This document shows positions 10,236 to 47,966 of a DNA stretch of 64,000 bases, one piece after another (position 1 is the stretch's first letter; each line of letters begins with the position of its first letter). The notes beneath the pieces are model-generated. The model saw only the letters and a list, made by a program, of their open reading frames with translations. It searched no databases and had not been told where the DNA came from. Source of the DNA: a virus; IMG/VR virus record IMGVR_UViG_3300045988_149288; one strand, given 5' to 3'. A program made the translations under genes and the position numbers.

Positions 10236-10252
10236 CTTATTTATAGAAGTTA
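10236..10252 (-). promoter_or_regulatory. T4-late-like TATAAATA motif upstream of 9217..10227
   Basis: minus strand reads CTTCTATAAATAAGGTATAATTATG. Confidence 0.4.
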
Positions 10253-16214: not shown

Positions 16215-17402
16215 ATGAAAATTGATTTATCGACTATCAAAAATGACCTTCTCACTTCTGGTATGAAACTTGCTTCCGCTATCGAAAGCAAGGGTTATGA
16301 AGCATACCTGGTTGGCGGTTGCGTTCGTGATATGGTTCGCTGGTCTCTCGGCCAGAGCGGTTTTCCTGATATTCATGATATTGACATCAGTACGAACATG
16401 CCTATCGAAGAACTTCAGAAAACCTTCAAGACCGCATCCAACAACGGTGAGGCTCACGGCACTATTCTGGTTTTCCAGGACGGTGAACCTTTCGAGGTGA
16501 CTCAGTTCAGAACCGACGGTGCATATACTGATGGTCGTCACCCCGATTCAATCACTTTCGCCAAGACTTTCAAGGAAGACTGCTTACGTCGCGATTTTAC
16601 CATCAACGCTATGGGACTTAGCGGCAAGGGTGAAGTGATTGACTATTACGGTGGTATCGCTGATGTCGAAAACGGTATTATTCGAGCTGTCGGCAAGGCA
16701 GAAGATCGTTTTGCTGAAGACTACCTTCGAATTTTCCGTGGTGTTCGCTTCATGGTCAACTTCGATTATTCTTTGGCTGATAGCACTTACGAAGCGATGA
16801 AGACTACTGCTTCTACTTATACCTATAAGCTGGATTCTCTGTCTTATCCTCGTATTCGTGGTGAAATTAGCAAGGTCAAGAACCCTTCTAAGAATCTTGC
16901 GAAGTTCTTCTTTACCTTGAACCATACTGGTGTTCTTAACTGGCTTACTACTTTCAGAAATGTCGATGTTCCTGCAATGATTAAGCGTTTGGAATCTGTA
17001 AAGCATCTCAACGAAGATAACATTTTCGCTGTAATCGCTTTCGGTGAAGAACCTGAAATGCTTGAACGCCTTTCTGCTACTCGCGAAGATTCTCGTCTTC
17101 TCAAGTGGTATAATTACATGCTCAAGAAGCTGAAGGAAACAAACGAGAACATTAGCTGGGATAGTATTGTTAAGTTCGTTGAGGGTGATTACAAGACACT
17201 CCTCGAAATGACCAAGATTATTCCTGCATGGTATCATCGAATTCCTATCGCTCTGAAGCTGAAAGACGATAAGCCTGATTTACATGCCATCGTCGAAAGA
17301 GTTCAGAACGAATTAGGTATCAAGCCAAGTGCTAAGTTCGGTCTTGCGGTTGACGCACTTCTCGAACAAGAATACGAAGCGAAAGCAACGAAAATCCAAT
17401 AA
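16215..17402 (+). CDS. cca: CCA-adding tRNA nucleotidyltransferase / poly(A) polymerase family
   Basis: Head-domain motif YLVGGCVRDMV...DIDI and class-II NTase body; plus-strand gene in a minus-strand block. Confidence 0.8.
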   Translation: MKIDLSTIKNDLLTSGMKLASAIESKGYEAYLVGGCVRDMVRWSLGQSGFPDIHDIDISTNMPIEELQKTFKTASNNGEAHGTILVFQDGEPFEVTQFRTDGAYTDGRHPDSITFAKTFKEDCLRRDFTINAMGLSGKGEVIDYYGGIADVENGIIRAVGKAEDRFAEDYLRIFRGVRFMVNFDYSLADSTYEAMKTTASTYTYKLDSLSYPRIRGEISKVKNPSKNLAKFFFTLNHTGVLNWLTTFRNVDVPAMIKRLESVKHLNEDNIFAVIAFGEEPEMLERLSATREDSRLLKWYNYMLKKLKETNENISWDSIVKFVEGDYKTLLEMTKIIPAWYHRIPIALKLKDDKPDLHAIVERVQNELGIKPSAKFGLAVDALLEQEYEAKATKIQ

Positions 17403-17404
17403 AA

Positions 17405-17436
17405 AACAAACCCGGTTTTTAACCGGGTTTTCATTT
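17405..17436. terminator. bidirectional rho-independent terminator
   Basis: aaaaaacaaacccggtttttaaccgggttttcatttt. Confidence 0.7.
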
Positions 17437-17681
17437 TATGCGATTGTTTCCCAACTGATTGTAATCATCTTTGAATCTTCATCTATTCGCATGAACTTAA
17501 ACTCAAATTCATTGAATTCGATGTCTTTTCGATTCAATGCTGGTAGTTTCACTTGGCTTTCGAGAATCGGCAAGCACTTTTCGCGGAATCGAGTGATTTG
17601 GCGAGAAGCTCCTGGAGTTCCTTCAGCTTCGTCAACAATAGTACATTTCTTTGTTTTCTTATCAACTCTTACAATAACCAT
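17436..17681 (-). CDS. hypothetical protein
   Basis: 81-aa ORF. Confidence 0.3.
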   Translation of the reverse strand: MVIVRVDKKTKKCTIVDEAEGTPGASRQITRFREKCLPILESQVKLPALNRKDIEFNEFEFKFMRIDEDSKMITISWETIA

Positions 17682-18121
17682 CAGATTCTCCGTTTAATTT
17701 TGATTTCATTTTCCTGGTCCACAAAATGTTCCTTCATGTATGCGACCTTATCAGCCGGTACATTGTGAACATTCTGGAATTCATTATCCATACGGTAAAT
17801 CGTAACTTTAATGTCACGAGCTTCCGCTTCTCTCAAATACGGTTTCAAATCCTTACGGGTTACGAACGTATTTGCGACGATAACATACTGTGCACCTTCA
17901 TCAAAAGCCCTAAATACTCTTTCAAAACAGTTTTTATGGGCATAATAAAGTTTACTAGTATGGAAAACGTATTCGCCCTTATCGTTATACCAATAATCAT
18001 CTGCCTCTACGTGCTCGACTTTGAAGCCTTGCTTTTCGAGGTCAGCTTTCAGCGTTTTGGCATAAGTAGACTTTCCGGAACCAGGTATTCCACGAACAAC
18101 AATCAATGTCTGTGTATTCAT
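17681..18121 (-). CDS. pnk: polynucleotide-kinase-like P-loop kinase (Pnk kinase domain only)
   Basis: Walker A VVRGIPGSGKSTYA; resembles T4 Pnk kinase domain in size and motifs; lies next to RNA ligase. Confidence 0.6.
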   Translation of the reverse strand: MNTQTLIVVRGIPGSGKSTYAKTLKADLEKQGFKVEHVEADDYWYNDKGEYVFHTSKLYYAHKNCFERVFRAFDEGAQYVIVANTFVTRKDLKPYLREAEARDIKVTIYRMDNEFQNVHNVPADKVAYMKEHFVDQENEIKIKRRI

Positions 18122-18339
18122 TTGATTTCCCTTGAGGAAACCAAATAAAAATCTGGTTTCCTATTCTGTTAACCTATATGCCGCAGCAACCAACAGAACA
18201 TTCAGTAAATAGAATTTAAAGAATATTCCGAAGACTGACCTACAGCCTAATTCCTCTCGACTTGTTCCTATTGAAGATATGATTAGAAACACAAATTCCA
18301 ATACGAACAATAACGTTCCATATTCAAATATAGTAAAAA

Positions 18340-19572
18340 TCATTCTTCAATAGTCCTTTGCACGTTAGAAGGTTCCAATTTTTTGTGTACAGCACGCTTT
18401 ACAGAAACAAAGCTCTTGTCATTGCGAGAAATACACTTGATAGCCTGCATAATAGCCCCTACATCGCTTTTATAGTGTGCTGTGGCATATTCATAGCGAG
18501 AACGCTGGTCTTCAACAGCCTTCATGGTTTCACGAGCTTCAGAGACGACTACTTCAGTTAATTCTGCTACCCTTTTACGTACGCTTTCGGCGTATTCACG
18601 TAATTCCGGGAATTCTTCAGGAATATACAAAACTTCGTCGTCAATCGGCTTGTAACCCTTTGTCTTGTCGACATTGGCATGGAAGAAATCCTTTTCACAG
18701 TCGTAAGCTACCCAGATATTCCATTCACTAAGGCATTCGAGCATTTTCGCAAGCTGGCACCATTCATCAGACTTTACCTTAATCTTGAAACCGTGTTCCG
18801 GGAAAGTGATAACGTAACCTTCCTGGTTTGACGGAAGCTTGGTTGCGATATTTCGAGCTTCATTGAAAGTATCGAATTCGTAAATCTCCGCCATCTTGAT
18901 TCCCCAAGCATTAGCATAGACACGAAGTCCGGTAATGTGTTCTTCTTCGTCAGTTTCATTATCGATAACAGCGAGCAGCACAAGGCCTTCGAAGTCATAA
19001 CGGATCGGATGGAAATCCTCGTTATAAACGATTTCGAACAGGTAGGTCTTCTTCGGGTTCAAGAGTTCCTTTTTGATATGCTGGTCAAACCAACGCTGTC
19101 CCCAGATTGCCTGGTCAGAATCGAAAGAACCGCCGGTTTTCAACTGCCAATGTTTCAGATACGGATTCCAGAATACGATACCCAAAGACCCGTCAACCTT
19201 TTCCATAGTATGGAAACGAATAGACTTCAGAATCTTTCGGATGTCAATCTTCTTCTGGTACTTCATGACCTTCTTTGCGAGTTCCGTCAGTTCGCCAGTC
19301 TCGCTGTCAATCAGTTCACCGTAGTTGAAGAACTTATCGAACGGACGAGCTACGATTTCGCCGGTTTCAGAATCGAAAACGATACCACGGGAGGTGAGAG
19401 TAATCTCATCCCAATCCGAAGTATATACTGTTTCTCGAGTATACTTGAAACCAACGAGCTTACCGTACCAGTGAGCTGTGATTCGTCCTTTTTCTGCCGC
19501 CTTCAAATACTTACGAAGCTTGTGCTTCTTCTGTATTTTCCTTAGCAGGTTCTTCAACTTTTCCGTTATCAT
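18340..19572 (-). CDS. rnlA: RNA ligase 1 (T4 RnlA-like)
   Basis: Motif I EKVDGSLG (KxDG); N-terminal RGIVFDSETGEIVARPFDKFFNYGE aligns with T4 Rnl1 [28 protein letters not shown]. Confidence 0.8.
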   Translation of the reverse strand: MITEKLKNLLRKIQKKHKLRKYLKAAEKGRITAHWYGKLVGFKYTRETVYTSDWDEITLTSRGIVFDSETGEIVARPFDKFFNYGELIDSETGELTELAKKVMKYQKKIDIRKILKSIRFHTMEKVDGSLGIVFWNPYLKHWQLKTGGSFDSDQAIWGQRWFDQHIKKELLNPKKTYLFEIVYNEDFHPIRYDFEGLVLLAVIDNETDEEEHITGLRVYANAWGIKMAEIYEFDTFNEARNIATKLPSNQEGYVITFPEHGFKIKVKSDEWCQLAKMLECLSEWNIWVAYDCEKDFFHANVDKTKGYKPIDDEVLYIPEEFPELREYAESVRKRVAELTEVVVSEARETMKAVEDQRSRYEYATAHYKSDVGAIMQAIKCISRNDKSFVSVKRAVHKKLEPSNVQRTIEE

Positions 19573-19786
19573 CTTTTTCTACCTTTTTCTTTGCACCGAC
19601 CTTATGGGTCTTGTCAAGTTCCACATGTTCGATTTTACAACCAGCTTCATATCTTTCCTTAATGAAGCTTTCAAGTTCACCACGAACTTCAGTTTCCGTT
19701 TCACCGTAACGCTTGAAAATAAGCGGTCCAGGAAGTCCATCGATAAAAACAATACACTTATAACGTTCTTTCATTACTTTTCCCAC
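19511..19786 (-). CDS. hypothetical protein
   Basis: 91-aa ORF overlapping gene ends. Confidence 0.25.
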   Translation of the reverse strand: MGKVMKERYKCIVFIDGLPGPLIFKRYGETETEVRGELESFIKERYEAGCKIEHVELDKTHKVGAKKKVEKDDNGKVEEPAKENTEEAQAS

Positions 19787-20442
19787 ATGGCATCGATTTT
19801 GACCAGTTCATCAATGCTTACGGGACGATACCATGCTTCCCAGCTAACATTGTTTTCAATCAACCGCATATCGTCCTGGTCAATAACACTGGTTTTATTG
19901 AATTCGTGTGTATGACCATGCACGACATAATCGATTTGACGACCTTCGTTGAGGTACTGGTTCAGAGCCGTAGGATCTCCGGAAGTACCATCATGTTCGT
20001 TAAGTGTTTTATCGTAGTTAAAATGCTGGAACAGATAATTCTTACCGTTATATGTCAAGAAAATATTGTCCTTTACCATTGTGATGTTCGGGAACATAGT
20101 GTCCTTAACCGGATAGAGCTTCTTAAACAACTGATAGTCATGATTTCCACGAATCATGTACATGTGCTTGAAATTCAACTTATTCGTGTAATAGTCACCG
20201 AAAACTTCGAGCAACTTGCTACCAGGAGTACCAAGAGTAAAGTCACCGAGAAAGATAACGGTATCATTCGGTGAAACGGTCGCATTCCACTGCTTAACGA
20301 TGTCTTCGTTCATTTCGTCGACTGTCACATACTTACGGGTACGGTCGAAATGATCTTCATAACTGGTACAAAGCTTTCGATGGTTAACGTGCAAGTCGCT
20401 GACGACAAAAATCTTTTCTGTATTAGGTAATTGTAAATCCAT
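19774..20442 (-). CDS. calcineurin-like metallophosphoesterase
   Basis: Motifs VVSDLHVNH, GDFTLG, RGNHD, GHTHE; start placed at MDLQLP preceded by TTATATTTGCAAT motif. Confidence 0.7.
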   Translation of the reverse strand: MDLQLPNTEKIFVVSDLHVNHRKLCTSYEDHFDRTRKYVTVDEMNEDIVKQWNATVSPNDTVIFLGDFTLGTPGSKLLEVFGDYYTNKLNFKHMYMIRGNHDYQLFKKLYPVKDTMFPNITMVKDNIFLTYNGKNYLFQHFNYDKTLNEHDGTSGDPTALNQYLNEGRQIDYVVHGHTHEFNKTSVIDQDDMRLIENNVSWEAWYRPVSIDELVKIDAMWEK

Positions 20443-20461
20443 ATTGCAAATATAATAAAAA

Positions 20462-20490
20462 TAAGGCATTTTGTAAATGCCTTATTTTTT
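20462..20490. terminator. bidirectional terminator
   Basis: aaggcattttgtaaatgcctt + T-run. Confidence 0.55.
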
Positions 20491-20655
20491 ACTCCTGAAC
20501 TTCGGCCAGTTATAACAAATTAGTATCAGAAACAGTGTTTCAAGAATTACGTAAACCATTGAAAACTGTAATTGTAACAACTTACAGAAAATGAACATTG
20601 TTACAAGTACCGATAAAAATGTGTTAATAACGAATAATGCGAATTTTTCCATGCT

Positions 20656-21771
20656 TTATTTATTAAGGTAATCTTCAATAATCTGCTCGTGATGGAAACC
20701 CATCTTCGGGAGGTCATTAACATCGAACCATGCAGCATCCTTGGCGTCGTCACCGGCCTTTGCGAGCTTCTTTTCCTTGCCAGATACCTTCACAGACACT
20801 GCTGTATCGATAATACGCAAGCGTGGGTCAAACATGTGGCTGTAGGTCTTAATCTGCTCAAACTTTTCAACCGGAAGGTCCAGGGACGTTTCTTCGCGGA
20901 ATTCACGCTGTGCTGCATGTTCCAAAGAAGCATCTGCTTTTTCCGGAAGTCCGGTTTCCTTATTAGTATAGTCGGTCGGATTAAAAAAACCACCGGGTGT
21001 GCAGAAGTAGTTCATGTAAGGCGGTTTCTTACGGCGAATCAACAGAACTTGGTCACTAGAAATACCGACAATATCGACGGTATTGGCGAACTTGCCCCAG
21101 CCCTGCTTCTTGTAGTTTTCAAGCCACTGCTTTTCGAGTTCTTCGTAATTGGACGGGTTCTGGTCATAAAGGCTGTTAGTCTTGATAGGCATATCACGGT
21201 CATCAGTCAGTTCGCCTTCTTTACGGATATATTCGAAAACCGGCTTGCTGATATACTGCTTCACATCCTTGTAATGACATTCAGGATTTCTGTAGAAAAT
21301 ATCACGAGCTTCGCTACTGGAAATATCGCCCTTGAGACCGAGATCGAGCAAAGAACAACCTTCACGCTTTTCGATACCAGTCGGAAGACCAGGATAACGA
21401 ACACAGACAATAAACTTGTAATTCTTCAAGAGACGGTCGCTAAACTTCCACTTCTTATCGAGCAATGCCTGCCATTCGTCTTCACCGATAACGATAGTAA
21501 TATCTGTATCTTCGGTTCCGAACTTGGAAGTAATGAATTCATAAGTTCTGTTATTCTGGATAAGAATAGTCGGATTCAACTTACGTGCCTTCATCGCAAC
21601 TTCAACCATAGCGGCACGTTCATTCACTGGCGTCTTGTAATTCTTTTCATCTGTATTGGAAACGATGACATAAAGTTCATCGCCTTTACGAACCTTCTTG
21701 CTCACAGCCTTGATAATAGCTTCATGAGCGTGTGTAATCGGATCAAATGCACCACCAATCAAATACTTCAT
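20656..21771 (-). CDS. bifunctional NMN adenylyltransferase / Nudix hydrolase (NadM-Nudix, NatV-like)
   Basis: N-terminal GGAFDPITHAHEA (HxGH nucleotidyltransferase); C-terminal Nudix box AAQREFREETSL. Confidence 0.8.
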   Translation of the reverse strand: MKYLIGGAFDPITHAHEAIIKAVSKKVRKGDELYVIVSNTDEKNYKTPVNERAAMVEVAMKARKLNPTILIQNNRTYEFITSKFGTEDTDITIVIGEDEWQALLDKKWKFSDRLLKNYKFIVCVRYPGLPTGIEKREGCSLLDLGLKGDISSSEARDIFYRNPECHYKDVKQYISKPVFEYIRKEGELTDDRDMPIKTNSLYDQNPSNYEELEKQWLENYKKQGWGKFANTVDIVGISSDQVLLIRRKKPPYMNYFCTPGGFFNPTDYTNKETGLPEKADASLEHAAQREFREETSLDLPVEKFEQIKTYSHMFDPRLRIIDTAVSVKVSGKEKKLAKAGDDAKDAAWFDVNDLPKMGFHHEQIIEDYLNK

Positions 21772-21772
21772 A

Positions 21773-22141
21773 TTATCTCCCAAAGAAATTTCCACAATGA
21801 GTTTCGACATCACCCATGACATCGCCCTTAACTGTAATGTTTCCGGCTTTTGTTTCTACATCGCCCATAACATCACCGCCAATTTCAACATTGCCAGCTG
21901 AACATTCAACATCACCGTCGACATCACCCTTTACAGTAATATTATGTCCTTTACAGGTACTGATAATGTCGCCATTAACGGTAATGTTGATAATCTTATC
22001 AGTTACTTCAATGGTCTTGGTACCGATAGTGATATTGTTACCATTGATACTAACATCACCAACAGGGTTATGAATTTTATGGCCATTAATTTCGATGCTC
22101 TTTACACCACCGAGACCTTTAAGAATATTCTCTTCAGACAT
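21773..22141 (-). CDS. bactofilin-like beta-helical repeat protein
   Basis: Repeats VKGDVDGDVE / IGGDVMGDVE / VKGDVMGDVE typical of bactofilin (DUF583) windings. Confidence 0.5.
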   Translation of the reverse strand: MSEENILKGLGGVKSIEINGHKIHNPVGDVSINGNNITIGTKTIEVTDKIINITVNGDIISTCKGHNITVKGDVDGDVECSAGNVEIGGDVMGDVETKAGNITVKGDVMGDVETHCGNFFGR

Positions 22142-23899: not shown

Positions 23900-25816
23900 T
23901 TACTTATCTGCTTCGGAGAACAGATTAATAAGCGTGTCCTTGCTCAACTGAGTCAAGTCAAGAGCAACTTCAGTCTCAGTATCGGAATCATCGACAAATG
24001 TAAAACCTGCTCTTTCGAGAATCGGCTTCAGGTCGACGAACGAACGACACTTGTTCTTGAGGTTCTCAATATACACGTCTGCATATTCTTGACTCGGGAC
24101 ACGTCCTCCTCCCTGGGTAAGGTCCATGAGATAGACTTTGTTGTCCACGATCAATGCACACTGCTTGTCGCGTTCGTTATCCACCGGAACGATGAATTCA
24201 GCGACAACATTGTTCGGGTCAACCTTTGCACTTACCCTGTATGCGTCATTCTTCTTTTTCTTTTGACGAGCGACGAAGAACTTAAACTGGGACTTTGCGG
24301 AACCATTGTACTGACTTACGGAAATCTTTCCATCCGGGCACTTGCAGTCGATGTAGAACAATTCTGTTGCTTCAGGGTCTGCATTAGTCATGTCGCCAGA
24401 GAAAATAATCTTATTTTCACGGTCAGTGAATGATGCGTTCCAGCCATAGCTACTACCGTTAATATCAGCCATATGAAGGTCGAAGTCACGAGTACCCCAT
24501 TCGTTACGCCAATAGATACCGACGATATTGTGATCGTCAGCCATATTGACAGAGGTACCGAACGGATAGTTACCGATGAAGTTTTTTTCTGACGTTGGGA
24601 CGGTCAGATTGATATTCAACGGATAACGAACAGTACATGCCTTACCCTTGATGGAATTGACAATGGAATCTTCGAGCATTCCATAGAGTACCATCAGGTA
24701 AGAATTCATGGACTGGCTTGTAGCCGGAGTGTCCTTGCGGATCCACATCTTGCCGTTACGAATTACGTACATCTTGCCGCGAGCGTTCTGGAGCTTAGCA
24801 AGAATACCTTGCATGAGAGTAATCTTCTTGAAGTTGGTGATTTCACCCTTTTCAAGACGAGCACGTACATCGTCCAGCTTCTTCTGTTCAGAAAGTACGG
24901 TTTCCCAGAAACCGGCAGTGAACGGCTTATGGTCAGTAACAGCCAAACGACGGATATGGTTAATAACCGATGAATTCGACTTCTTGCCAACAACAGCGGC
25001 CTTAAGCTTTGCTGCAGCCTTTCTGAAAGCTTCATTCTTGAAAACAGACGACTTACCAGCATCCTTCTGATTCTTGAATGCCAAGAACAGAGGCTTGAAG
25101 CGGTAGAAAATTGAAGCGAGTGCATGACACTGCTCTTCCGACAGTTTAGTGAAGTCGACGCTTTCAGCCTTTTCCTTAATCATGCGGATAGTCTTCTTGT
25201 CCTTGATGAGCATAGCTGCACCAGTAGCCTTGAAGACAAAATATCGAAGCATGTTAAACGGATCCTTACCGTAGAAACCAGTTGCATCCATCAGGGCGAT
25301 GGTTGCTTCCTTATTCTTAATGGTATCAATATCGAGACCATAGGTCTTGAAGCGCTTCTGTTCGGTAATGAAGCCAACAAGTGCGTTAACGGTTTCAGTT
25401 TCAAGAGCGATACCAGCCTGGAGCATCTTAACACAACGGTTATAGATTTCTTCGTCAGTTGCCGGCATAATCACCTTGAAAGAGTCATATGGGATTTCAA
25501 CGTCCGGAGCGTTGTTCGGAACGTATGTTTCACCCGTATAATCGGTTCCGTAGGTCGAGGCGTAATGAAGAAGTTGATCTACCAACAATTCAAAACGCGT
25601 CTTAGACGTGATGTCGGACCATTTGGCGTAGAAAGTCTTATTGTAATTTGTCTTCGCTTCAGCCTTGACCCAATCGAGTGCGAGCTTGGAACAACAATCC
25701 GGGTGGATAATCCAACCGTACTTTGCGGATTCAGCGTTGACATCTTCAAAAGAACGCTTTGAGTTACCTTCTGCCTTAGGCATGACATTGAACATTGTAA
25801 TCAACTTAAGATTCAT
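23900..25816 (-). CDS. large hypothetical protein (638 aa)
   Basis: long ORF with 100-nt leader containing GAGGAA SD; no recognisable motif. Confidence 0.4.
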   Translation of the reverse strand: MNLKLITMFNVMPKAEGNSKRSFEDVNAESAKYGWIIHPDCCSKLALDWVKAEAKTNYNKTFYAKWSDITSKTRFELLVDQLLHYASTYGTDYTGETYVPNNAPDVEIPYDSFKVIMPATDEEIYNRCVKMLQAGIALETETVNALVGFITEQKRFKTYGLDIDTIKNKEATIALMDATGFYGKDPFNMLRYFVFKATGAAMLIKDKKTIRMIKEKAESVDFTKLSEEQCHALASIFYRFKPLFLAFKNQKDAGKSSVFKNEAFRKAAAKLKAAVVGKKSNSSVINHIRRLAVTDHKPFTAGFWETVLSEQKKLDDVRARLEKGEITNFKKITLMQGILAKLQNARGKMYVIRNGKMWIRKDTPATSQSMNSYLMVLYGMLEDSIVNSIKGKACTVRYPLNINLTVPTSEKNFIGNYPFGTSVNMADDHNIVGIYWRNEWGTRDFDLHMADINGSSYGWNASFTDRENKIIFSGDMTNADPEATELFYIDCKCPDGKISVSQYNGSAKSQFKFFVARQKKKKNDAYRVSAKVDPNNVVAEFIVPVDNERDKQCALIVDNKVYLMDLTQGGGRVPSQEYADVYIENLKNKCRSFVDLKPILERAGFTFVDDSDTETEVALDLTQLSKDTLINLFSEADK

Positions 25817-25952: not shown

Positions 25953-26133
25953 TTTTTTCCTTGGTTACTTTCTTCTTCAAGGAGTTTTCTGTTTCCAACG
26001 TACTTCCCATAAAAACTTACCGCTCGGATCGTGTTAGAATAGTTTAGGGATTGAGTTCTGTTTGACGATAAACAACCCGAACGGTCTGTATAATATAGCA
26101 AGTGCTTTGTCTGTTGTAAACCCTATATATGAA

Positions 26134-26162
26134 AAAAGTAGAGCCGGTAGACTCTACTTTTC
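26134..26162. terminator. terminator downstream of patatin gene
   Basis: aaaagtagagccggtagactctactttt. Confidence 0.5.
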
Positions 26163-26177
26163 ATTCAAATTCCGATG

Positions 26178-27053
26178 TTATCTATTTTTTATAAAATCCA
26201 AAACATCTTTTTTGACTGTTTCATAGTAGTCTTCCCAAATATTGATGACCGTTGTAAGATTCGAACTGCTTACGTCGTCCATCTTCAGCTTCTTTTTGTA
26301 TTTAGGGCAAGCGTTAAATACATATTTGTCGCCAAGTATCGCCTTCGCTTCGTAAATCGGAGATTTACTGGCTCGCGCGGCCCAATCCGAAATGATGTAT
26401 TCAGCCCAACCGACCAAGGACTTGTTTCCGGAATCAGTATTCGGTGTATCGAGACCGGTTCCGAAATTCAAAATCTTGATGTCCTTGTGGTTCTGCTTGA
26501 ACTGACCTGCTAAAAGAACGTCTGTACAGTTATTGGCCCACATGCCACCGTCGCAGAACGAATTTCCCTTATCATCAACAATAACGTCGAAATAGGTCGG
26601 AGCACTGCAACTTGTCAAAATGGCGAACCATTTATTTGTATCAGTATCGCCGAGGTCCCATACCTTTTCTACGGATTCTCCGTTCATGTATGTAACCGGG
26701 ATAAATGTCGGTTTCTTCCAGTCTGAAACCTTACCATTGAAATTCTTTTTCAAGAGAGCTTTCAAATTGGAATTATCATAGGTCGGACAGGACGGTTTCA
26801 AACGCTTATACCAGGAATACTTAGTAAAAATCTTGCTAAGGTTTGCCTTGTAGAGTTCGAAAAGGTCATGTGCCGAATATCCTTCAGAAAGACCGCCAGC
26901 AATGATAGAACCGGTACTTGTTCCAGCAAAAGCCGTTGACAAATCACCGAGTTTCTTACCGAGGTCCTGTTCAAGACGACACATAAAAGCTAATGGGCCG
27001 ATTCCGAGAGCACCACCGCCTTCAACTGAAATACATAATTGTTTCTTTGCCAT
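26178..27053 (-). CDS. patatin-like phospholipase
   Basis: Oxyanion GGGALG, nucleophile elbow GTSTGS (GxSxG), catalytic DGG in FCDGGMW. Confidence 0.8.
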   Translation of the reverse strand: MAKKQLCISVEGGGALGIGPLAFMCRLEQDLGKKLGDLSTAFAGTSTGSIIAGGLSEGYSAHDLFELYKANLSKIFTKYSWYKRLKPSCPTYDNSNLKALLKKNFNGKVSDWKKPTFIPVTYMNGESVEKVWDLGDTDTNKWFAILTSCSAPTYFDVIVDDKGNSFCDGGMWANNCTDVLLAGQFKQNHKDIKILNFGTGLDTPNTDSGNKSLVGWAEYIISDWAARASKSPIYEAKAILGDKYVFNACPKYKKKLKMDDVSSSNLTTVINIWEDYYETVKKDVLDFIKNR

Positions 27054-27093
27054 ATTTTCTCCTATACTATTTATAAGAGAAAAATGACCAGAA

Positions 27094-27573
27094 TTATGCT
27101 AAATTTTTCAATATCATGGTTTCAAGCTCGAAATCATTCATGCTCTTTTTATATTCAAAACTATCATCATGTCCAGAAAGTCTCGAATATGGAATTCCCA
27201 TAGAATCCCAGATTTTATGCTGCATAACTATCCAGCCATTCTCAGCATAAAAATCTTCCCATCTATTAAGAAATTCAATCAAATCATTTAGCTTAGATTT
27301 TGTCAGCCATTCCAACATTTTAAAGACATTATCTTTATGGTCAAAAATCATTATTGCACATCTGTCTTTAATGGGCATAAGAGTACATGTGACCATAATT
27401 TCAAACTTTTCTTCATCTTCATACCAGCTGAGTTCAACCTCAAATCGATTATCCTTATCACGAAGACAAATACTTTCATGGGTTTGAGAAGTATTTATAC
27501 TCATGTAATAATTATCTGGTTTAATTCGAAGAATATAGTTTTGAAAATGCTGAAATGTATATGCGTCAGACAT
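27094..27573 (-). CDS. hypothetical protein
   Basis: 159-aa ORF. Confidence 0.35.
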   Translation of the reverse strand: MSDAYTFQHFQNYILRIKPDNYYMSINTSQTHESICLRDKDNRFEVELSWYEDEEKFEIMVTCTLMPIKDRCAIMIFDHKDNVFKMLEWLTKSKLNDLIEFLNRWEDFYAENGWIVMQHKIWDSMGIPYSRLSGHDDSFEYKKSMNDFELETMILKNLA

Positions 27574-28019
27574 TACTTCTTACCTAGAAGCTTATTAAAG
27601 GCATTTACGAGCTTACTGATTTCGTCTTCACCGTGTGTAGGTTCATAATCAATACTTGTATCATAAACAACACGACGTTGAACTGGTTCTTTCTTCATTT
27701 TTTCCTTATGTTCATTCATAAGTTTTTCAGCAAGTTCATATGACGGAATATAAAATCCAACATCCCATGAAGCATCTTTTGAACAAATATGAGGTTTAGA
27801 TTCTTCTTTCCAAAGACAGCTATCACGGTATCTTAAGTATCGTTCCATATTATAGGTCAAACGAAACCAAGTCTTCGAACCACTATTTATCTTACGGTAT
27901 TCAACAACAAACCATGACGGGTCTCGGTTTGCAATACTTGGAGAAACATCAAAATCGAACACTGGATATTCAAATGTACCAAGTTCTATAATACGATATT
28001 CATAAAGTGATTTTTCCAT
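27573..28019 (-). CDS. hypothetical protein
   Basis: 148-aa ORF. Confidence 0.35.
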   Translation of the reverse strand: MEKSLYEYRIIELGTFEYPVFDFDVSPSIANRDPSWFVVEYRKINSGSKTWFRLTYNMERYLRYRDSCLWKEESKPHICSKDASWDVGFYIPSYELAEKLMNEHKEKMKKEPVQRRVVYDTSIDYEPTHGEDEISKLVNAFNKLLGKK

Positions 28020-28064
28020 ATAATAAAATATAATAAAAAATATATTATTTGTTAATATATTATT

Positions 28065-28934
28065 TTAATTATCTTTATTTTCAACATATTCCCATTTTAA
28101 TTTTTCATTAGTTATAGGATCTCTACCTGCAGTTTTTCTTGTTCCATGTAAAACTTCTATAATTTTTGATGCTTTTTTAGCCCATTTTTTTGCATCAATA
28201 ATTGTTTTAAAAATCATACCATTATTTACGCACCGTATAGGTTTATATCTTGTTTCCCATGGATTCCAACCAGTTTCACGTTTTTCTTTATATTTTTCTC
28301 TTGCTAAAATACTATGTTCTTCAAGTTTATTTGGATTTGACCACGTAATTTTATTTGAATTCCTAATTTTTTCACGCCATTCCAGATTATCTTTATTTTT
28401 ATCTATATTATTTCGTAATGTATTACAAATAGTTTCATAATATTCAGAATTAGTCTTATATGTATTTTTCATACCTATTGATTTTCTATTTTTTATTTCT
28501 GGATTATTTGCTATTTGTTTTAACTTATTTTTTATTTTTTCTTTTTCTTCTTCTGTTCTATTTTTCCACATGTTATATGAAATTTCAGATTGCTGTTTTC
28601 GACGTTTATCATCAAAAACAGTACAATGATATTCATTTCTTATAATTTCATAAGTTCTTGATGAAATTTTTGATGTATATGTATTATTTAATGACAAAAA
28701 TATCCACATTGCACATGCGGTTTTTTGACATGGCCAAATTTTATAGCAAAGTATATGTGCAATAAAATGTTCTCGTGGTGTTAATAAAATAAAATTATGC
28801 TTATTTGAAATATATTGTGGAAAAATACATTTTGGAAATATATGATGTTTTTCATAATATATACCATTATGCTTACATCTATTTTCTAATTTTGCCTTTT
28901 TAATCAAATTTATATAAATTTTTCTATAATTCAT
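28065..28934 (-). CDS. HNH-like homing endonuclease (AT-rich islet)
   Basis: YYEKHHIFPKC motif; strongly AT-rich relative to flanks; TATAAATATAAT directly upstream of ATG. Confidence 0.5.
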   Translation of the reverse strand: MNYRKIYINLIKKAKLENRCKHNGIYYEKHHIFPKCIFPQYISNKHNFILLTPREHFIAHILCYKIWPCQKTACAMWIFLSLNNTYTSKISSRTYEIIRNEYHCTVFDDKRRKQQSEISYNMWKNRTEEEKEKIKNKLKQIANNPEIKNRKSIGMKNTYKTNSEYYETICNTLRNNIDKNKDNLEWREKIRNSNKITWSNPNKLEEHSILAREKYKEKRETGWNPWETRYKPIRCVNNGMIFKTIIDAKKWAKKASKIIEVLHGTRKTAGRDPITNEKLKWEYVENKDN

Positions 28935-28945
28935 ATTATATTTAT

Positions 28946-28968
28946 AATAAAAGGGGTTTTGACCCCTT
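28946..28968. terminator. terminator
   Basis: aaaaggggttttgacccctttatt. Confidence 0.55.
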
Positions 28969-28970
28969 TA

Positions 28971-30083
28971 TTAAAAAACATAACCATCGCGACTTATACC
29001 TGTAGTTACATCACGTAAAATGCATGGAATTACTTCATTTGAACGTGTAATAATAACTTCATGGCCGATTTCAATACCCATATATTCAAGCATATCAATA
29101 TTACACATATTTGCACGTTGAATTGTTGCACCACATAATTCTACTTTTTCTACAATAGCAACCGGAGTCAAATTGCCATTCTTGATAGACCATTCAATGT
29201 TAAGGATCTTGGTCTGAGCAAGAGAATACTTCGGCTTCAAAGCGATAGAGAATTCCGGGAGGTAATTCGTTTCAAGATCTTCATAATCGATAACAGAAGT
29301 CTTCCAAACAAGACCGTCAATCTGATAATCGCGTTCTTCATGCCAAACCTGGTCCATAATGGCAACAGCCTTATCGCCAGTCATAGAGTCGAGGTCATAA
29401 ATTTTGTATTCGACGACATCGAAACCCTGCTTGGTCATCCAGTCGAGCATATCGACCTGAGTATGAAATTTAGTGTTCTTCGGGCGAGCTTCATAAACCT
29501 TGATATTGAGCTTGTCACAATCAGAACCATCGAGATGCTTCATAATACCAGAAGCGGCATTACGACAGTTCTTGTACTTCGGGAAGAACTGTTCCTTAAC
29601 GGACTTGTAGAGCAAAATTTCACCACGGATAGTTCCGGTAAATTCCTTATCCTTAAGCTTCTTGACAGCACCTTTCATTTTGAGGATATTATCGGTAATA
29701 TCATCACCGTATTCACCGTCACCGCGAGTAATGCCCTGAACGAGCTTACCGTCAACGTATTCAAGAGCAATAGAACAACCGTCAAGCTTCAAAGGAGCGA
29801 CGACAAATTCATGACCGGCCATACGACACTTATTGAACCAGACGTTCATTTCTGGAGCCGTATTGGCCTTATTCTGAGAGCCCATGATAATGTTGTGTTT
29901 TACTTTTTCAAATCCTTCGGTATGATCCTTACCGACTTCCTTCAAAACATCAGAATCAGGATAATTGGTTTTGAGTTCATCCCAGAGAGCATCGAATTCG
30001 ATGTCGCTCATAATCGGGGTGTCGGAGTTATAGTAGGCATCTTGTGCCTGGCGGATTTTAGCTTCAAGTTCGTTCTTATTCAT
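28971..30083 (-). CDS. NAD-dependent DNA ligase N-terminal module (Ia, adenylation, OB), stand-alone
   Basis: Ia-like YYNSDTPIMSDIEFDALWDEL, motif I APLKLDGCS (KxDG), TRGDG; start set at MNKNELEAK after TTTTTTACTATATTG. Confidence 0.8.
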   Translation of the reverse strand: MNKNELEAKIRQAQDAYYNSDTPIMSDIEFDALWDELKTNYPDSDVLKEVGKDHTEGFEKVKHNIIMGSQNKANTAPEMNVWFNKCRMAGHEFVVAPLKLDGCSIALEYVDGKLVQGITRGDGEYGDDITDNILKMKGAVKKLKDKEFTGTIRGEILLYKSVKEQFFPKYKNCRNAASGIMKHLDGSDCDKLNIKVYEARPKNTKFHTQVDMLDWMTKQGFDVVEYKIYDLDSMTGDKAVAIMDQVWHEERDYQIDGLVWKTSVIDYEDLETNYLPEFSIALKPKYSLAQTKILNIEWSIKNGNLTPVAIVEKVELCGATIQRANMCNIDMLEYMGIEIGHEVIITRSNEVIPCILRDVTTGISRDGYVF

Positions 30084-30115
30084 GTTATACAATATAGTAA
30101 AAAATATAGGCCTTG

Positions 30116-30382
30116 TCAACCCATTTTTTCTAAAGCATTGAGAATACAAAAATCATGCTTAAATGCAAGATTTTCTTTTTCAACGTCCATATCGTATTTC
30201 TTGTCACCCATTTGGATAATCTTATAAGAAGAATTTGCGATATGAGTATCGCTTTCTCGCGTCCACGAATACGTATAGCCACCAATCAGTTCTTGTTTAA
30301 GGGTTCTCCGTATAAGTCCATGAATATAACAATCACAGTCGTCTTTAACACCATCTTTGTCAATTATTGTTACTAGAATCAT
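30116..30382 (-). CDS. hypothetical protein
   Basis: 88-aa ORF. Confidence 0.3.
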   Translation of the reverse strand: MILVTIIDKDGVKDDCDCYIHGLIRRTLKQELIGGYTYSWTRESDTHIANSSYKIIQMGDKKYDMDVEKENLAFKHDFCILNALEKMG

Positions 30383-31151: not shown

Positions 31152-32801
31152 TTAGCGGCGGCGGCGACGCGTTGCTTCGGAAATGACGGACGGATCGTTC
31201 ATCAAATCAGCGAGGTTGCGACCGATAGAAGAAGTATTGAATGCGGCAGATTCCTTAGTCGGATCTTCCTTCGGCTGTGGAGTTTCCGGACGAGCTTCGT
31301 CCTTGGCTTCGTTTACGACTTCAGCTTCAGCCTTTTCGACCTTCGGAGCGCCGGAAACACCAGCGAGTCGGGCACCGAACATAGAACCGAGAACGGTCTT
31401 AAGGTCCATACCGAGAGAATCGGTCAAACCGCTAGAAATCTGAGTAAGCGTCTTGGTAATATCGCCGGTAAGCTTTGCGGTACCACTTTCACCGTACATG
31501 TTGATGTTACCAATCTTTTCCATCGGCTTAGCAACTGCGGCAGCGACAGCCGGGAGCTGTTCGAAATACTTTTCGATGGTCTTGAGCTGCATTTCCTGAC
31601 GAGCTGCGTCACCATACTTCTTCATGGCTTCAGCCTTCTGGTCAAGAGCTGCTGCTTCTGCAAGACCCTTAGCCTTTACAGCATCAGCCTCAGCTTCACC
31701 TTTAGCCTTAGTAGCTGCGGCTTCAGCGAAAGCCTTTTCCTTATCAGCTTCAGCCTTGGCGATAATTGCCTTAGCTTGCTGCTGCTGGGTAAAGAGTGCT
31801 GCTTCAGCTTCCTTCTGCTGCTTATAAAGTTCAGCATCAGAACGCTGCATCTGAGCCTGCTTATCGGCTTCAGCCTTCTTCTGAATTTCAGCTTCGAGTT
31901 CCTTCTGACGGACAGCTACCATACGTTCGCGAATTTCAATCTGTTTTTCCTGCTTTGCAACTTCTGCAGCTGCTGCGGTAATATTGATGGTCTTCTGCTG
32001 TTCCTGCTTCTGAATTTCATAAGCGGCATCAGCTTCGGCCTTCTTAGTATCAGAAATTCGCTTAAGGTCAGCCTTCTTAACTTCGAGGTCGTTCTGCTTC
32101 TGAGCGATTTCAAGGTTTGCTGCAACCTGAGCGTCGTTTGCGGTCTTTGCTGCTTCAGCTTGAGCAATCTTCACGTCACGTTCTGCATTTGCTCGAGAAA
32201 TTGATGCAGCCTTCTGAATAGCCACTGCCTTATCGACACCGAGGTTTTCAATAACCTTACCGTCATCGGAGAAGTTCTGAATATTGAAGGTCTTAACGAT
32301 AATACCGAGTTTTTCAAGGTCTGGAATAGCATTTTCGAGAACCTTTTCAGAAACCTGCTTTCGATCCGTAACCATGTCGACCAGATTCATCTGACCAACA
32401 ATCTCACGCATATTACCCTCAAGCACGTCAACAATCATCGCCTTAATCTGTTCAATCGGTTTATTGAGGAAGTTCTGTGCAGCTTTCTTAATTGCTTCAG
32501 GTTCATCAGAAATCTTCGCATTAACAACAGCGTCAACTGTTACATTAATGTAGTCCTTGGTCGGAACTGCCTGCTTAGTCTTGACGTCAATCGGAATCAA
32601 CTTCAAGCTAAGAACGTCAGCACGTTCAAGGAACGGGATCTTGAAACCAGCATGTCCGATAATTGTTCGAAGCTGTCGGAAACCCGAAATAATAATTACT
32701 TCATCCGGCGCCGCCTTAATGTAAGACGTAATGAAGAGGATAACGAGGAAAAGTACGAGCAGGCCGATACCCGCACCGATGAGGATATTTGAACTAATCA
32801 T
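31152..32801 (-). CDS. flotillin (SPFH/band-7 domain + EA-rich flotillin repeats)
   Basis: N-terminal TM, SPFH-like region, long EAxxK/AEAA coiled-coil repeats typical of FloT/YqiK. Confidence 0.75.
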   Translation of the reverse strand: MISSNILIGAGIGLLVLFLVILFITSYIKAAPDEVIIISGFRQLRTIIGHAGFKIPFLERADVLSLKLIPIDVKTKQAVPTKDYINVTVDAVVNAKISDEPEAIKKAAQNFLNKPIEQIKAMIVDVLEGNMREIVGQMNLVDMVTDRKQVSEKVLENAIPDLEKLGIIVKTFNIQNFSDDGKVIENLGVDKAVAIQKAASISRANAERDVKIAQAEAAKTANDAQVAANLEIAQKQNDLEVKKADLKRISDTKKAEADAAYEIQKQEQQKTINITAAAAEVAKQEKQIEIRERMVAVRQKELEAEIQKKAEADKQAQMQRSDAELYKQQKEAEAALFTQQQQAKAIIAKAEADKEKAFAEAAATKAKGEAEADAVKAKGLAEAAALDQKAEAMKKYGDAARQEMQLKTIEKYFEQLPAVAAAVAKPMEKIGNINMYGESGTAKLTGDITKTLTQISSGLTDSLGMDLKTVLGSMFGARLAGVSGAPKVEKAEAEVVNEAKDEARPETPQPKEDPTKESAAFNTSSIGRNLADLMNDPSVISEATRRRRR

Positions 32802-32838: not shown

Positions 32839-33579
32839 TTAATCGTTCAGCCATGAGTTCTCCATTGCAATGAAGACACAGCAGATTACGATAATAACCG
32901 TTGAGAAAATAAGCCAGAAGTAAAGTACAGTGTGTTTCCAACTGAATGACTCTACCGCCTGGTCAATGCGTACACCATCTCGATATTCAGCATCATTCAT
33001 CCGATGATTATCAATATTGGCATAAACAGTTCCAGTATAGCTTAAAGACCTACAATAATAAACATATCTCTTATGATGAGCAAAATTAATCGTCTTTACA
33101 TAATGACCTTCCGGCAATTTCGGGAATTGACTGTAATAAAAGTCCTTCTTGATGAAATTGACCTTATCAACAGCCCAATCCTTGGCACCGTGATAGTCCC
33201 AGGTCCAATATACCTTGGTATGACAGCTACGTGTCTTACCAGAACCAGTACAGACGAGCTTTGTGTGCATCGTATAGACCTCAAGCACTCGATGTATCGA
33301 CATATACTGGCCAGGCAAACCGTTGTCCGTAACGCTTCCTATTGCATTAACGGTGCCGTATGCCAAAGTATGCCCAGCATTGGTTTTAAAAGCATATTCA
33401 AACTGTGTGGAATCGTTATCGATCTTTACAGCCTGATTATACTTGGCGTTATGTTCGTCCTGCCAAATACCCATCCTGTTCCCGACATAGAAACCTACGC
33501 CGAGGGAGATAAGGGCGAAAATGAGGGCGATAATAACTTCGCGCTGGGTTACTTCAATATTGGTATTACCAAGATACAT
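32839..33579 (-). CDS. membrane protein (N- and C-terminal TM helices flanking a soluble domain)
   Basis: TM IIALIFALISLGVGFYV and VLYFWLIFSTVIIVICCVFIAM. Confidence 0.4.
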   Translation of the reverse strand: MYLGNTNIEVTQREVIIALIFALISLGVGFYVGNRMGIWQDEHNAKYNQAVKIDNDSTQFEYAFKTNAGHTLAYGTVNAIGSVTDNGLPGQYMSIHRVLEVYTMHTKLVCTGSGKTRSCHTKVYWTWDYHGAKDWAVDKVNFIKKDFYYSQFPKLPEGHYVKTINFAHHKRYVYYCRSLSYTGTVYANIDNHRMNDAEYRDGVRIDQAVESFSWKHTVLYFWLIFSTVIIVICCVFIAMENSWLND

Positions 33580-33583
33580 TTAT

Positions 33584-34135
33584 TTAGTCCTTGAGAAGTC
33601 CAGTAGGTGCGTCAACAGGCGCATTCTTGAATTCGAGGAATTCATAATCCTTTTCTTGATACCCGAGAATGCTTAAGAACATACGAGTCGGGAACATACG
33701 AACATGTTGCTTGTATTCACGAACATTCGAATTGTAATACTTACGGTGTGAAGAAATACGGTTTTCAGTCATCGCAAGTTCCGTCATATAACGGTCATAA
33801 TTCTCGATACTGCGAAGCTGAGGATAGCGTTCTACAACGCCCTTGATATATGCAGAAGCATTAACATTGCCATTGCCTTCACTTGGCGTACGAGCCTGAG
33901 ACAACTGGACAAGCACTTCAGCTTCATGCTTGTTATAGGATTTGACTGCTTCAGCCAAATTCACGAGCAAACCGGATCTACGGTTGTATTCTGCGTTCAA
34001 ATCACTTAGAGAGCTTTCAATAAGCTGTTCCTTTGCGATTGCGGTATTCTGCGAACTCTGAATTCCGAGCACGCCAGCGATGATTGCGGCACCGATGACC
34101 AAAAGGCCTACGAGTAGCATTGTTACGGGTTTCAT
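33584..34135 (-). CDS. lemA: LemA-family membrane protein
   Basis: N-terminal TM plus LemA-like core (LVNLAEAVKSY...ARTPSE...RMFPTRMFLSILGYQEKDYEF). Confidence 0.65.
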   Translation of the reverse strand: MKPVTMLLVGLLVIGAAIIAGVLGIQSSQNTAIAKEQLIESSLSDLNAEYNRRSGLLVNLAEAVKSYNKHEAEVLVQLSQARTPSEGNGNVNASAYIKGVVERYPQLRSIENYDRYMTELAMTENRISSHRKYYNSNVREYKQHVRMFPTRMFLSILGYQEKDYEFLEFKNAPVDAPTGLLKD

Positions 34136-36448: not shown

Positions 36449-36467
36449 AATAACCTCTATATACTAT

Positions 36468-36495
36468 TTATAAAAAAGACTAGAACCCAAAAGTT
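36468..36495. terminator. terminator
   Basis: aaaaagactagaacccaaaagttctagtcttt. Confidence 0.5.
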
Positions 36496-46674: not shown

Positions 46675-46700
46675 TTTTATAAATATATCAGTGAGGATTT

Positions 46701-47966
46701 ATGAAATTAACAGAAGCTAAAAAAATACTTGTGGAATATGGATATTTGCTTAAAGAATATTCGCCGCATCAAGAAACATATAGCCATGACAGTGAAGGCT
46801 GGGATGAAGCCGAAAAGCGTTTTAAGGCCGGTGCAGACTTAGTAAAAAAGAAAATTGATTCTTTGGACCTCGAAATTACTTCTGAAAATATGTCAGAACC
46901 CGCTCCGATGAATGATACATGGAATTATACCGTTAGGGCTAAATCTGATAATAATCTGACTTATTATTTTTCATTCCATGAAACTAAGCCAGAACGTCTT
47001 AAAGGAAAAGAAGATGTTAAAGGCGAGATGTATGATTACCGTTATTACGTATCTGTTGACGGTGCAATCAATAAGACTCTTTCGCCTGAAAAATCTTTTG
47101 AAAATTCTATAGATTGCGCTAAAGAAATGATAAATGCGATTGATTCCGTGATAAATATTGATACTTCTGGAGTAATTGCGGTTGCTGATAAGATTAAAGA
47201 TGAGTTAGACCCTTGGACTGCAAAGGGATATACAGTAAATGTTAAGATAAAAGAAGCAAATTATGGACATAATAAAGACTACGAAACATTCCTTGACATC
47301 ATTGTACAAAAGAAACTCAGTGACGAAGTTAGGAAATATACATATCAGGGATTTTCTGAACATTTGGCTGTAGCTTTCACCATTAATGGTAAAACATTAA
47401 AATGGAATATTTCTGCTATAAGAGGACATTCTCCGGAAACGATTTCCGCTGATGAAGGTTCTCTTGATAAAATGACTGAATTGATTCAGAAATATGTTCT
47501 TATAAAATATAATGAAATGCTGAGATCGATGAGCGATTCCAAGAAGCGTGCCAATACAGTCAAACCAGATAATTCTAATAAGAAGAAAGCGCAAGCCCGT
47601 CTTAAAGCACACATAGAGGACTTACTCGAAACCGATCTTATCGGTAATTTCGATAAGGCAGTAGAACTTAATAAGGATTACGTCAACGCCATAATCATGA
47701 AACCTGTTGCAGAAGCAGTAAATGATTATGTATATGATAATTACAGTGACGAAGACGGTAGCGTAGGTACTTGGGATGCTGATGACGCTTGGGATTATTT
47801 CGATGATGACTTTGTTGGTTATATCGAAAAGGAATGGAACGGTAGTATTAAGGACTATTGTGATGAATCCGATATTACAACCCTTGACGAATTACAGGAA
47901 GATGTAAAAGAAAATTGGGATTGGGATAGACCAAGCGAAAGTGCATTAGAATACGACCCATATTAA
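46701..47966 (+). CDS. acidic hypothetical protein (421 aa)
   Basis: plus-strand ORF preceded by TTTTTATAAATATAT...GAGGATTTATG and followed by a terminator. Confidence 0.45.
   Translation: MKLTEAKKILVEYGYLLKEYSPHQETYSHDSEGWDEAEKRFKAGADLVKKKIDSLDLEITSENMSEPAPMNDTWNYTVRAKSDNNLTYYFSFHETKPERLKGKEDVKGEMYDYRYYVSVDGAINKTLSPEKSFENSIDCAKEMINAIDSVINIDTSGVIAVADKIKDELDPWTAKGYTVNVKIKEANYGHNKDYETFLDIIVQKKLSDEVRKYTYQGFSEHLAVAFTINGKTLKWNISAIRGHSPETISADEGSLDKMTELIQKYVLIKYNEMLRSMSDSKKRANTVKPDNSNKKKAQARLKAHIEDLLETDLIGNFDKAVELNKDYVNAIIMKPVAEAVNDYVYDNYSDEDGSVGTWDADDAWDYFDDDFVGYIEKEWNGSIKDYCDESDITTLDELQEDVKENWDWDRPSESALEYDPY

Follow-up and report, generated by a model that had tools for sequence, protein, structure and literature searches.

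The closest characterised relatives of the protein described here are CapV (AbCapV, PDB 8zr9/9jeh; 9kh6) and CapE (9iom), the patatin lipases of the cyclic-oligonucleotide-based antiphage signalling system (CBASS). Canonical patatins carry Gly-Gly-Gly-Arg in the oxyanion loop (PMC10291501), and the R21A mutation nearly abolishes the activity of AbCapV (PMC12480259). Phage-encoded lipases are rare, and phage patatins so far carry proposed roles only (PMC9203015, PMC9723777). Here, we describe a patatin gene in the IMG/VR virus record IMGVR_UViG_3300045988_149288, together with two adjacent open reading frames (ORFs), ORF148 and ORF159, that an earlier sequence-only reading had grouped with it. 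The whole 64-kb stretch that was analysed is called the window, and all coordinates follow its numbering; nearly all of its genes lie on the minus strand. The evidence points to a patatin-fold hydrolase, most likely captured from Fibrobacter, that appears to sit in a self-contained, swappable cassette with its own expression signals.

The gene product had been called patatin-like, and profile, predicted fold and catalytic motifs all agree. The profile hidden Markov model (HMM) search, which might have placed the protein outside the patatin family, places it inside, with 58 bits against a gathering threshold of 27.7 for Pfam PF01734 over residues 9-180. There are 529 homologues at E<=1e-5, and most of the top 120 share 58-99% identity. 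The AlphaFold2 (AF2) model is of high quality (predicted local distance difference test (pLDDT) 90.8; predicted template-modelling score (pTM) 0.90) and has the three-layer alpha/beta/alpha patatin fold. Foldseek aligned this model to CapV, CapE and the plant patatin Pat17 with template-modelling (TM) scores of 0.77-0.86; by target, these were 0.84-0.86 for the CapV structures and 0.78 for the plant patatin. The gene is under strong purifying selection, with a ratio of nonsynonymous to synonymous substitution rates (dN/dS) of 0.018 against a 99%-identical copy on a related contig. No signal peptide or transmembrane segment was found in the protein (hydropathy maximum 1.45), which is predicted to be cytoplasmic and single-domain.

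The sequence-only reading had also credited the protein with a complete patatin catalytic apparatus. This holds for the Ser-Asp dyad and the glycine loop, but the canonical Arg/Lys of that loop is replaced by Leu16 (Table 1). Conservation was read from an alignment of 44 homologues, in which G12-G14, G17, all of GTSTG and all of DGG are invariant or nearly so; the last two motifs align to S58 and D192-G-G of AbCapV. Leu16 is itself invariant, so that the basic residue of GGGx[R/K]G is absent while the Gly triplet is kept. The 120 closest proteins tell the same story, with GGGxLG in 107, GGGICG in one and no such motif in 12. In an exhaustive search of 1.84 billion representatives, the residue here was mostly L, M, W or F in the nearest clusters (>=35% identity) and mostly R or K in relatives below about 35% identity. 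Because an invariant leucine takes the place of the phosphate-binding Arg/Lys, we suggest that the enzyme either acts on another substrate than classical phospholipase A2-type patatins do or positions it differently. Thus, the "patatin" in the earlier label of patatin-like phospholipase stands, whereas "phospholipase" becomes less certain (compare R21A, PMC12480259).

How far does the resemblance to the CBASS lipases extend? The phage protein shares with CapV and CapE a single-domain patatin fold, a similar size and the dyad of GTSTG Ser and DGG Asp. A PADLOC CBASS effector model matches it at 8.9e-39, and seven of the seven single-sequence matches in a search of PDB sequences are CBASS lipases. 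However, identity to CapV/CapE is only about 21%, and the NCBIfam CBASS_lipase model (NF041079) matches at 3e-30 with 105.6 bits, below its equivalog cut-off of 200. The phage patatin is 40-70 residues shorter than CapV, and CapV R21, the loop Arg needed for activity and filament formation, is Leu16 here. Where CapV has the hairpin [FY]KTxH[HN] / KTPH[HN] with F147 and K149, the phage family has a shorter motif, SxEKVWD, of which S127, E129, K130, V131, W132 and D133 are invariant among the 44 homologues. We compared the cyclic GMP-AMP (cGAMP) contacts F147, K149, D159, E207 and R279 of AbCapV by sequence-level mapping. AbCapV F147-P151 fall in an insertion that the phage family is without in the HMM alignment, E207 aligns to the invariant G183 of the phage protein, and R279 lies outside the aligned region. 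The sole counterpart among the aligned contacts is D159, which pairs at equal spacing with Asp136, like K141 an invariant residue of the phage family.

Genomic context was compared as well. Oligonucleotide cyclases (CD-NTases) were found in none of the 88 ORFs within the window and in none of the 89 neighbour ORFs of other Leu-variant clade members. These negatives are meaningful because the same scan detected cyclases in 26 of the 98 ORFs that flank canonical GGGx[R/K]G patatins from metagenomes. Moreover, unlike CapV and CapE, the phage patatin is a stand-alone gene in the phage and in its host. We therefore reject its identity as a CBASS effector on the basis of the cyclase scans of the 64-kb window and of clade neighbourhoods with their positive control, the sub-cut-off score and the motif comparison.

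The patatin gene appears to carry its own expression signals. The 40-nt gap that separates it from ORF159 holds the promoter-like motif TATAAATA and an AGGAG ribosome-binding site, and a terminator-like hairpin follows the stop codon (RNA fold -17.8 kcal/mol, z = -3.1), although a consensus terminator scan did not list this hairpin. There are 18 copies of TATAAATA in the window against 6.6 expected, a number reached in 0 of 100 shuffles; 17 of the 18 read along the coding strand, and for 13 an ORF starts within the next 60 nt. In five lineages with divergent patatin alleles, the motif also persists ahead of the gene, and it looks like the phage's own promoter class. A possible promoter variant in other lineages, ATAAACT, is 2-4-fold enriched there and is not relied on here. 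Further TATAAATA sites in the window lie at 10238-10245, 36465-36472, 50374-50381, 58975-58982 and 62596-62603.

The same unit is exchanged between related phages. Compared with the relative L013, sliding identity is about 99% down to about position 27120, falls to 50-90% across the cassette and returns to 97% from 26137. The two break-points (~27120 and ~26137) are the edges of the promoter-ORF-terminator unit. In the window, L013 and L067 (a relative with a 402.7-kb contig), flanking genes are 93-99% identical (synonymous divergence, dS, 0.08-0.15), whereas the patatin alleles are 72-76% identical and saturated at synonymous sites. Because patatin dS is saturated while flank dS is about 0.1, whole alleles appear to have been imported; homing-endonuclease-associated recombination fits this pattern better than diversification in place, and diversifying selection in situ was rejected on the same grounds. 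A homing-endonuclease-like gene directly adjoins patatin in two of the three phages, L013 and L067, and stands two genes off in the window. The adjoining genes (L013 6970-7686; L067 9072-10028) are low in GC, related to each other (35-38% identity) and located on opposite sides of patatin. The product of the L013 gene (238 aa) begins with Cys/His zinc-finger-like motifs and ends in a nuclease-like segment, and that of the L067 gene is a 318-aa DUF7487 protein; they may represent a homing endonuclease family that targets the patatin locus.

Where did the gene come from? We scanned one genome per species from 185,579 species with two family-specific peptide patterns drawn from a closer alignment (A1), one of them NGxS[VE]EKVW. 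Among the 39 loci recovered, 34 belong to Fibrobacter or Fibrobacterales metagenome-assembled genomes (MAGs), at 44-54% identity to the window patatin and on contigs of up to 650 kb. Their neighbours are SecA, a GlgC-like nucleotidyltransferase, a GH5 cellulase, Fib_succ_major-domain proteins and a lipid A acyltransferase, and these copies are chromosomal host genes that stand alone. The other five loci show 60-65% identity, three on contigs of 173-317 kb and two on contigs of ~2 kb, and sit in bins named Methanobrevibacter, Prevotella, Bacteroidaceae or Fibrobacter; the long ones are probably mis-binned contigs of huge phages. Phage-type alleles in MAGs were noted at L028 (JAFRFB010000097.1), L029, L030 (2 kb) and L032 (JAFXNA010000004.1), in MAGs that carry the labels Methanobrevibacter, Prevotella, Bacteroidaceae and F. 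succinogenes. The remaining close homologues are all viral, on contigs that reach 431 kb and stem from ruminant and other gut metagenomes; these contigs carry T4-type portal, terminase and nucleotide-metabolism genes. Members of the clade were found nowhere but in Fibrobacter chromosomes and in huge T4-like phages from the guts of ruminants and equines.

In a neighbour-joining tree without bootstrap, the phage sequences are monophyletic, sister to one Fibrobacter subclade and nested in Fibrobacter diversity. Given this nesting, the simplest reading is that the gene was most likely captured once from Fibrobacter, and Fibrobacter is therefore the probable host. In an unrelated metagenome, at 373-5846 of Ga0209125_1001107 (L070), a co-directional block opens with TnsB-/TnsC-like genes and ends in a GGGALG-type patatin, which a Tn7-like transposon may carry as cargo.

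The sequence-only reading had treated the two neighbouring ORFs as lying downstream of patatin and as its possible partners or regulators. The coordinates of all three ORFs are borne out, and so is the stop-start coupling of the two unknown ones, which share a single base in TAATG at 27573. However, because all three ORFs are on the minus strand, ORF148 and ORF159 are upstream of patatin, and the order of transcription is ligase, HNH gene, ORF148, ORF159, patatin. The likely ATG start of the ligase is at 30083, and the ligase of relatives is called as 370 aa. The HNH gene matches the homing endonuclease family PHROG 655 (3.4e-28) and has its own TATAAATA at 28939..28946. Its segment is missing in L009, L010 and L013, in which the ligase stop overlaps the ORF148 start, and the segment is read as an insertion exactly at the ligase/ORF148 junction. 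The window contains three such free-standing, low-GC (about 23-26%) homing endonuclease genes, at 28020-28969, 48058-49107 and 53173-54093, each with TATAAATA ahead of it.

ORF148 and ORF159 are real genes under purifying selection (dN/dS 0.16-0.32 and 0.08-0.30, respectively). Neither has a match in Pfam, PHROG, PADLOC, NCBIfam or PDB sequences, and the AF2 model of ORF159 (pLDDT 64) gave no meaningful fold match. Neither contains a hydrophobic segment, with maxima of 0.44 for ORF148 and 1.39 for ORF159 over 19-residue Kyte-Doolittle windows. Among 5.8 billion proteins, we found three homologous clusters for ORF148 and five for ORF159, all in this phage lineage. A three-gene module in which they act as partners, regulators or immunity proteins of patatin would suit the tight packing and shared direction of the genes, the TAATG overlap, the selection on both ORFs and the failure to find a terminator between ORF159 and patatin. 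Set against it is the comparison of 27 phage and 32 Fibrobacter loci, in which the neighbours of patatin vary by lineage and these orphans occur only in the closest relatives of the window; elsewhere, in the other phage lineages as in Fibrobacter, they are missing next to patatin. Moreover, the patatin allele has been replaced beside them while both ORFs kept 93-99% identity, a 318-aa low-GC mobile gene of DUF7487 type separates ORF159 from patatin in L067, and ORF148 is translationally coupled to DNA ligase in close relatives. The promoter-like motif and terminator of patatin itself also oppose a shared module. We give such a module a very slim chance, and a partnership between these ORFs and patatin is not supported.

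What might the patatin cassette do? The reading we favour, and to which we give about an even chance of being right as a whole, is that of a host-captured patatin hydrolase in an autonomous cassette that would cleave lipids late in infection. The minus-strand ORF, read from 27053 to 26178, encodes a serine hydrolase of patatin fold in which Ser46 and Asp168 form the dyad and the oxyanion loop carries GGG. An ancestral phage would have taken the gene from its Fibrobacter host, and related phages trade the cassette as a unit, probably via recombination driven by homing endonuclease genes that repeatedly land beside patatin. By analogy with T4, the enzyme would be produced late, and it would then hydrolyse the acyl esters of lipids in the host membrane, working from the cytoplasm, with neither a cyclic-nucleotide signal nor ORF148 or ORF159. 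The outcome we prefer is membrane breakdown and egress; lipid turnover is the other. The sequence-only reading had proposed that the enzyme might act in lysis, in entry or against host immunity; of the candidate roles, a late attack on the membrane seems the most plausible.

Several points weigh against this reading. Since the Arg-to-Leu replacement corresponds to the near-abolishing R21A mutation of CapV (PMC12480259), the enzyme might be a poor phospholipase or act on another target. In the window, patatin sits among replication, repair and nucleotide-metabolism genes rather than lysis or structural genes. More broadly, 131 neighbour ORFs from 17 phage loci gave matches to 80 PHROG families, and endolysin, holin and spanin are absent among the 25 most frequent of these; the idea of a lysis cassette found no support in these neighbourhoods. 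The "late" timing of TATAAATA is borrowed from T4, and in the window UvsX and the three homing endonuclease genes have the motif ahead of them too; PHROG annotation of the genes that it precedes in the window revealed no structural gene by which timing could be calibrated. Finally, the direction of transfer is inferred from the nesting in the unbootstrapped tree.

Alternatively, the host-derived lipase could be a non-lytic auxiliary metabolic gene that remodels or recycles host lipids, possibly acyl esters other than phospholipids. It might supply fatty acids or reshape the membrane during a long infection cycle, perhaps with the LemA and Band_7/flotillin genes that lie 4-7 kb upstream. The host origin of the gene, its strong purifying selection and the missing phosphate-binding Arg/Lys, which fits a non-phospholipid substrate, all suit this role, as do nearby genes for DHFR, dCMP deaminase, NadM-NUDIX and an MFS transporter and the mostly nucleotide-metabolism neighbours across lineages. 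However, lipid-metabolism partner genes are linked to patatin in no lineage, and a T4 late-type promoter motif of its own suits an end-of-cycle role at least equally, so we regard a purely metabolic role as unlikely. A signal-gated, CapV-like effector, inactive until a small ligand other than 3'3'-cGAMP binds, could instead provide a timed membrane switch or exclude competitors. A phage would run a risk with a cytoplasmic membrane lipase that nothing regulates, CBASS lipases are the best matches in both sequence and structure (the PADLOC hit, the seven PDB matches and the TM scores of 0.84-0.86), and a different invariant motif occupies the cGAMP hairpin site, with Asp136 aligned to D159. Gating is nevertheless improbable given that no cyclase was found in the 64-kb window or beside Leu-variant relatives by a scan that detects cyclases readily in the control, that the score is below the curated CBASS_lipase cut-off, that F147, K149 and E207 are not conserved by alignment and R21 is Leu, and that the protein is shorter than CapV.

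A bolder proposal, similarly improbable, treats the clade as a rewired branch related to the CBASS lipases, in which SxEKVWD and Asp136 would sense another small molecule or a protein and the Arg-to-Leu change would redirect the enzyme to a non-phospholipid lipid. It would then act as a timed switch for lysis or exclusion, and the constant turnover of alleles would stem from an arms race instead of passive co-conversion by homing endonucleases. Could the enzyme act at entry? A lipase that is packaged and injected, or associated with the tail, might breach the host membrane; T4 virion proteins likewise have late-type promoters, and in one lineage (L005-L008) the gene has a T4-type portal gene on one side and two fibre-like proteins of >1,200 aa on the other. 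Yet neighbours are non-structural in the window and in most lineages, and the protein is a bare patatin domain in which no virion-targeting or tail domain was recognised, which leaves this proposal a slim chance. The likeness to CBASS effectors, and the probable counter-defence modules for RNA repair and NAD salvage nearby, would also suit a decoy or sponge that absorbs the cyclic-nucleotide signal of the host. The probability of this is close to negligible: the catalytic Ser and Asp are invariant and under strong purifying selection, which a sponge would not need, most nucleotide-contact residues are unconserved, and the host itself has members of this clade as chromosomal genes that stand alone. 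The invariance of the catalytic residues led us to reject the sponge.

Table 1. Features of the patatin locus and of other genes in the 64-kb window.
Feature	Position	Strand	Remarks
Patatin ORF	26178..27053	minus	291 aa; patatin-fold serine hydrolase gene
Oxyanion loop GGGALG	aa 12-17, nt 27003..27020	minus	Leu16 at canonical Arg/Lys place
Nucleophile elbow GTSTG (Ser46)	aa 44-48, nt 26910..26924	minus	G44 T45 S46 T47 G48 invariant
Clade-specific hairpin S-V-E-K-V-W-D	aa 127-133, nt 26655..26675	minus	at site of CapV cGAMP-binding hairpin
Catalytic Asp motif DGG (Asp168)	aa 168-170, nt 26544..26552	minus	D168 G169 G170 invariant
TATAAATA promoter-like motif (T4 late-promoter consensus)	27068..27075	minus	14 nt upstream of patatin ATG
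Shine-Dalgarno AGGAG	27059..27063	minus	5 nt ahead of patatin ATG; read from sequence
Terminator-like hairpin	26132..26161	minus	12-bp stem, 4-nt loop, U6; 17 nt past patatin stop
Exchangeable cassette (promoter, patatin, terminator)	26137..27120	minus	differs between otherwise near-identical phages
ORF159	27094..27573	minus	159 aa; acidic soluble orphan protein, 5' of patatin
ORF148	27573..28019	minus	148 aa; orphan protein; stop overlaps ORF159 start (TAATG)
HNH homing endonuclease insertion	28020..28969	minus	free-standing; ORF 28065..28934; GC 24%; between ligase and ORF148
NAD-dependent DNA ligase	28971..30149	minus	leads co-directional block; Pfam DNA_ligase_aden 8e-34 plus OB domain
638-aa protein	23900-25816		directly after patatin cassette; 97-99% identity, dN/dS 0.02-0.09
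CCA-adding/PolyA_pol enzyme	16215-17402	plus	RNA-repair and NAD cluster (16215-21822)
AAA_33 kinase	17681-18121		RNA-repair and NAD cluster
T4 Rnl1-type RNA ligase	18340-19572		RNA-repair and NAD cluster
Metallophosphatase	19774-20469		RNA-repair and NAD cluster
Bifunctional NMN adenylyltransferase-NUDIX protein	20656-21822		RNA-repair and NAD cluster
SPFH/Band_7-flotillin protein	31152-32801		549 aa; membrane-associated trio
246-aa protein without assigned family	32839-33579		membrane-associated trio
LemA	33584-34135		membrane-associated trio, kept in relatives

The window comes from a huge, uncultured, distant T4-like phage of the ruminant gut. Its gp43-type polymerase shares about 30% identity with homologues from cyanophages, and it also encodes UvsX and Rnl1. 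At the nucleotide level, the patatin locus has no match in 50,697 phage records. The RNA-repair and NAD cluster probably serves tRNA repair and the reconstitution of NAD+, both counter-defence functions. A link between the membrane-associated trio and membrane remodelling is possible. The 638-aa protein that follows the patatin cassette has no Pfam, PHROG, PADLOC or NCBIfam match. Several genes of the window are host-like and odd for a phage, including two Cpn10/GroES homologues, ClpP, translation initiation factor IF-1, an MFS transporter, an M16 peptidase domain, DHFR and dCMP deaminase. One of the two sizeable plus-strand genes, at 46701-47966, encodes a 421-aa protein without a family match and has its own TATAAATA at 46678-46685; the GC skew flips locally at 47001-48000.

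What does this locus add? The patatin clade is an uncharacterised, host-specific subfamily within a known kind of enzyme rather than a new system. It is now defined as a coherent and abundant clade of hundreds of sequences from huge uncultured phages, with Fibrobacter, a key rumen cellulose degrader, as probable host and with a distinctive active-site variant. The clade offers a marker for assigning hosts to rumen phages of ~400 kb, some of which are mis-binned in public MAGs. In T4-like huge phages, its patatin is also a specific candidate for a late function directed at membranes, and the three-gene "operon" and the CBASS-like reading are removed as unsupported stories.

Other phage patatins differ from this one. 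When the protein was searched by tblastn against the INPHARED phage collection, seven of the 50,697 deposited records matched, and the only named phages among them were Wolbachia phages WO (27-29% identity). In phage WO, patatin lies beside a holin-like small transmembrane protein and a tail module in a putative lytic cassette (PMC9203015). By contrast, ORF148 and ORF159 have no transmembrane segment, and the neighbours here are a ligase, a homing endonuclease gene and RNA-repair genes; in adjacent genes and in sequence, the locus thus does not appear to be a WO-type cassette. The marine megaphage Mar_Mega_1 and the huge phage LR745206, with genomes of >500 kb, carry a patatin-like phospholipase as an auxiliary gene, for which a role in host virulence has been proposed (PMC9723777). 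The LR745206 copy is only 27.8% identical to the window patatin and so belongs to a different clade.

Beyond phages, patatins are common in giant eukaryotic viruses in a BFVD search, where the best match is a single-domain patatin of Catovirus CTV1 (A0A1V0SAF6; TM 0.83, 22% identity). Mycobacteriophage LysB is also a lipolytic esterase, one that finishes lysis by attacking a lipid layer. However, it is a cutinase-like alpha/beta hydrolase with a fold unrelated to patatin, is encoded in a lysis cassette and targets the mycolyl-arabinogalactan ester. Potato Pat17 (1oxw/4pk9) and iPLA2-beta (6aun) share the fold and dyad with the phage enzyme, but they have the loop Arg where the phage enzyme has GGGAL. 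The patatins ATGL/PNPLA1-5 likewise lack this Arg and act on neutral lipids, which offers a lead to the substrate rather than a test. Against CapV, the clade forms a natural contrast from which to learn which features make a patatin nucleotide-gated.

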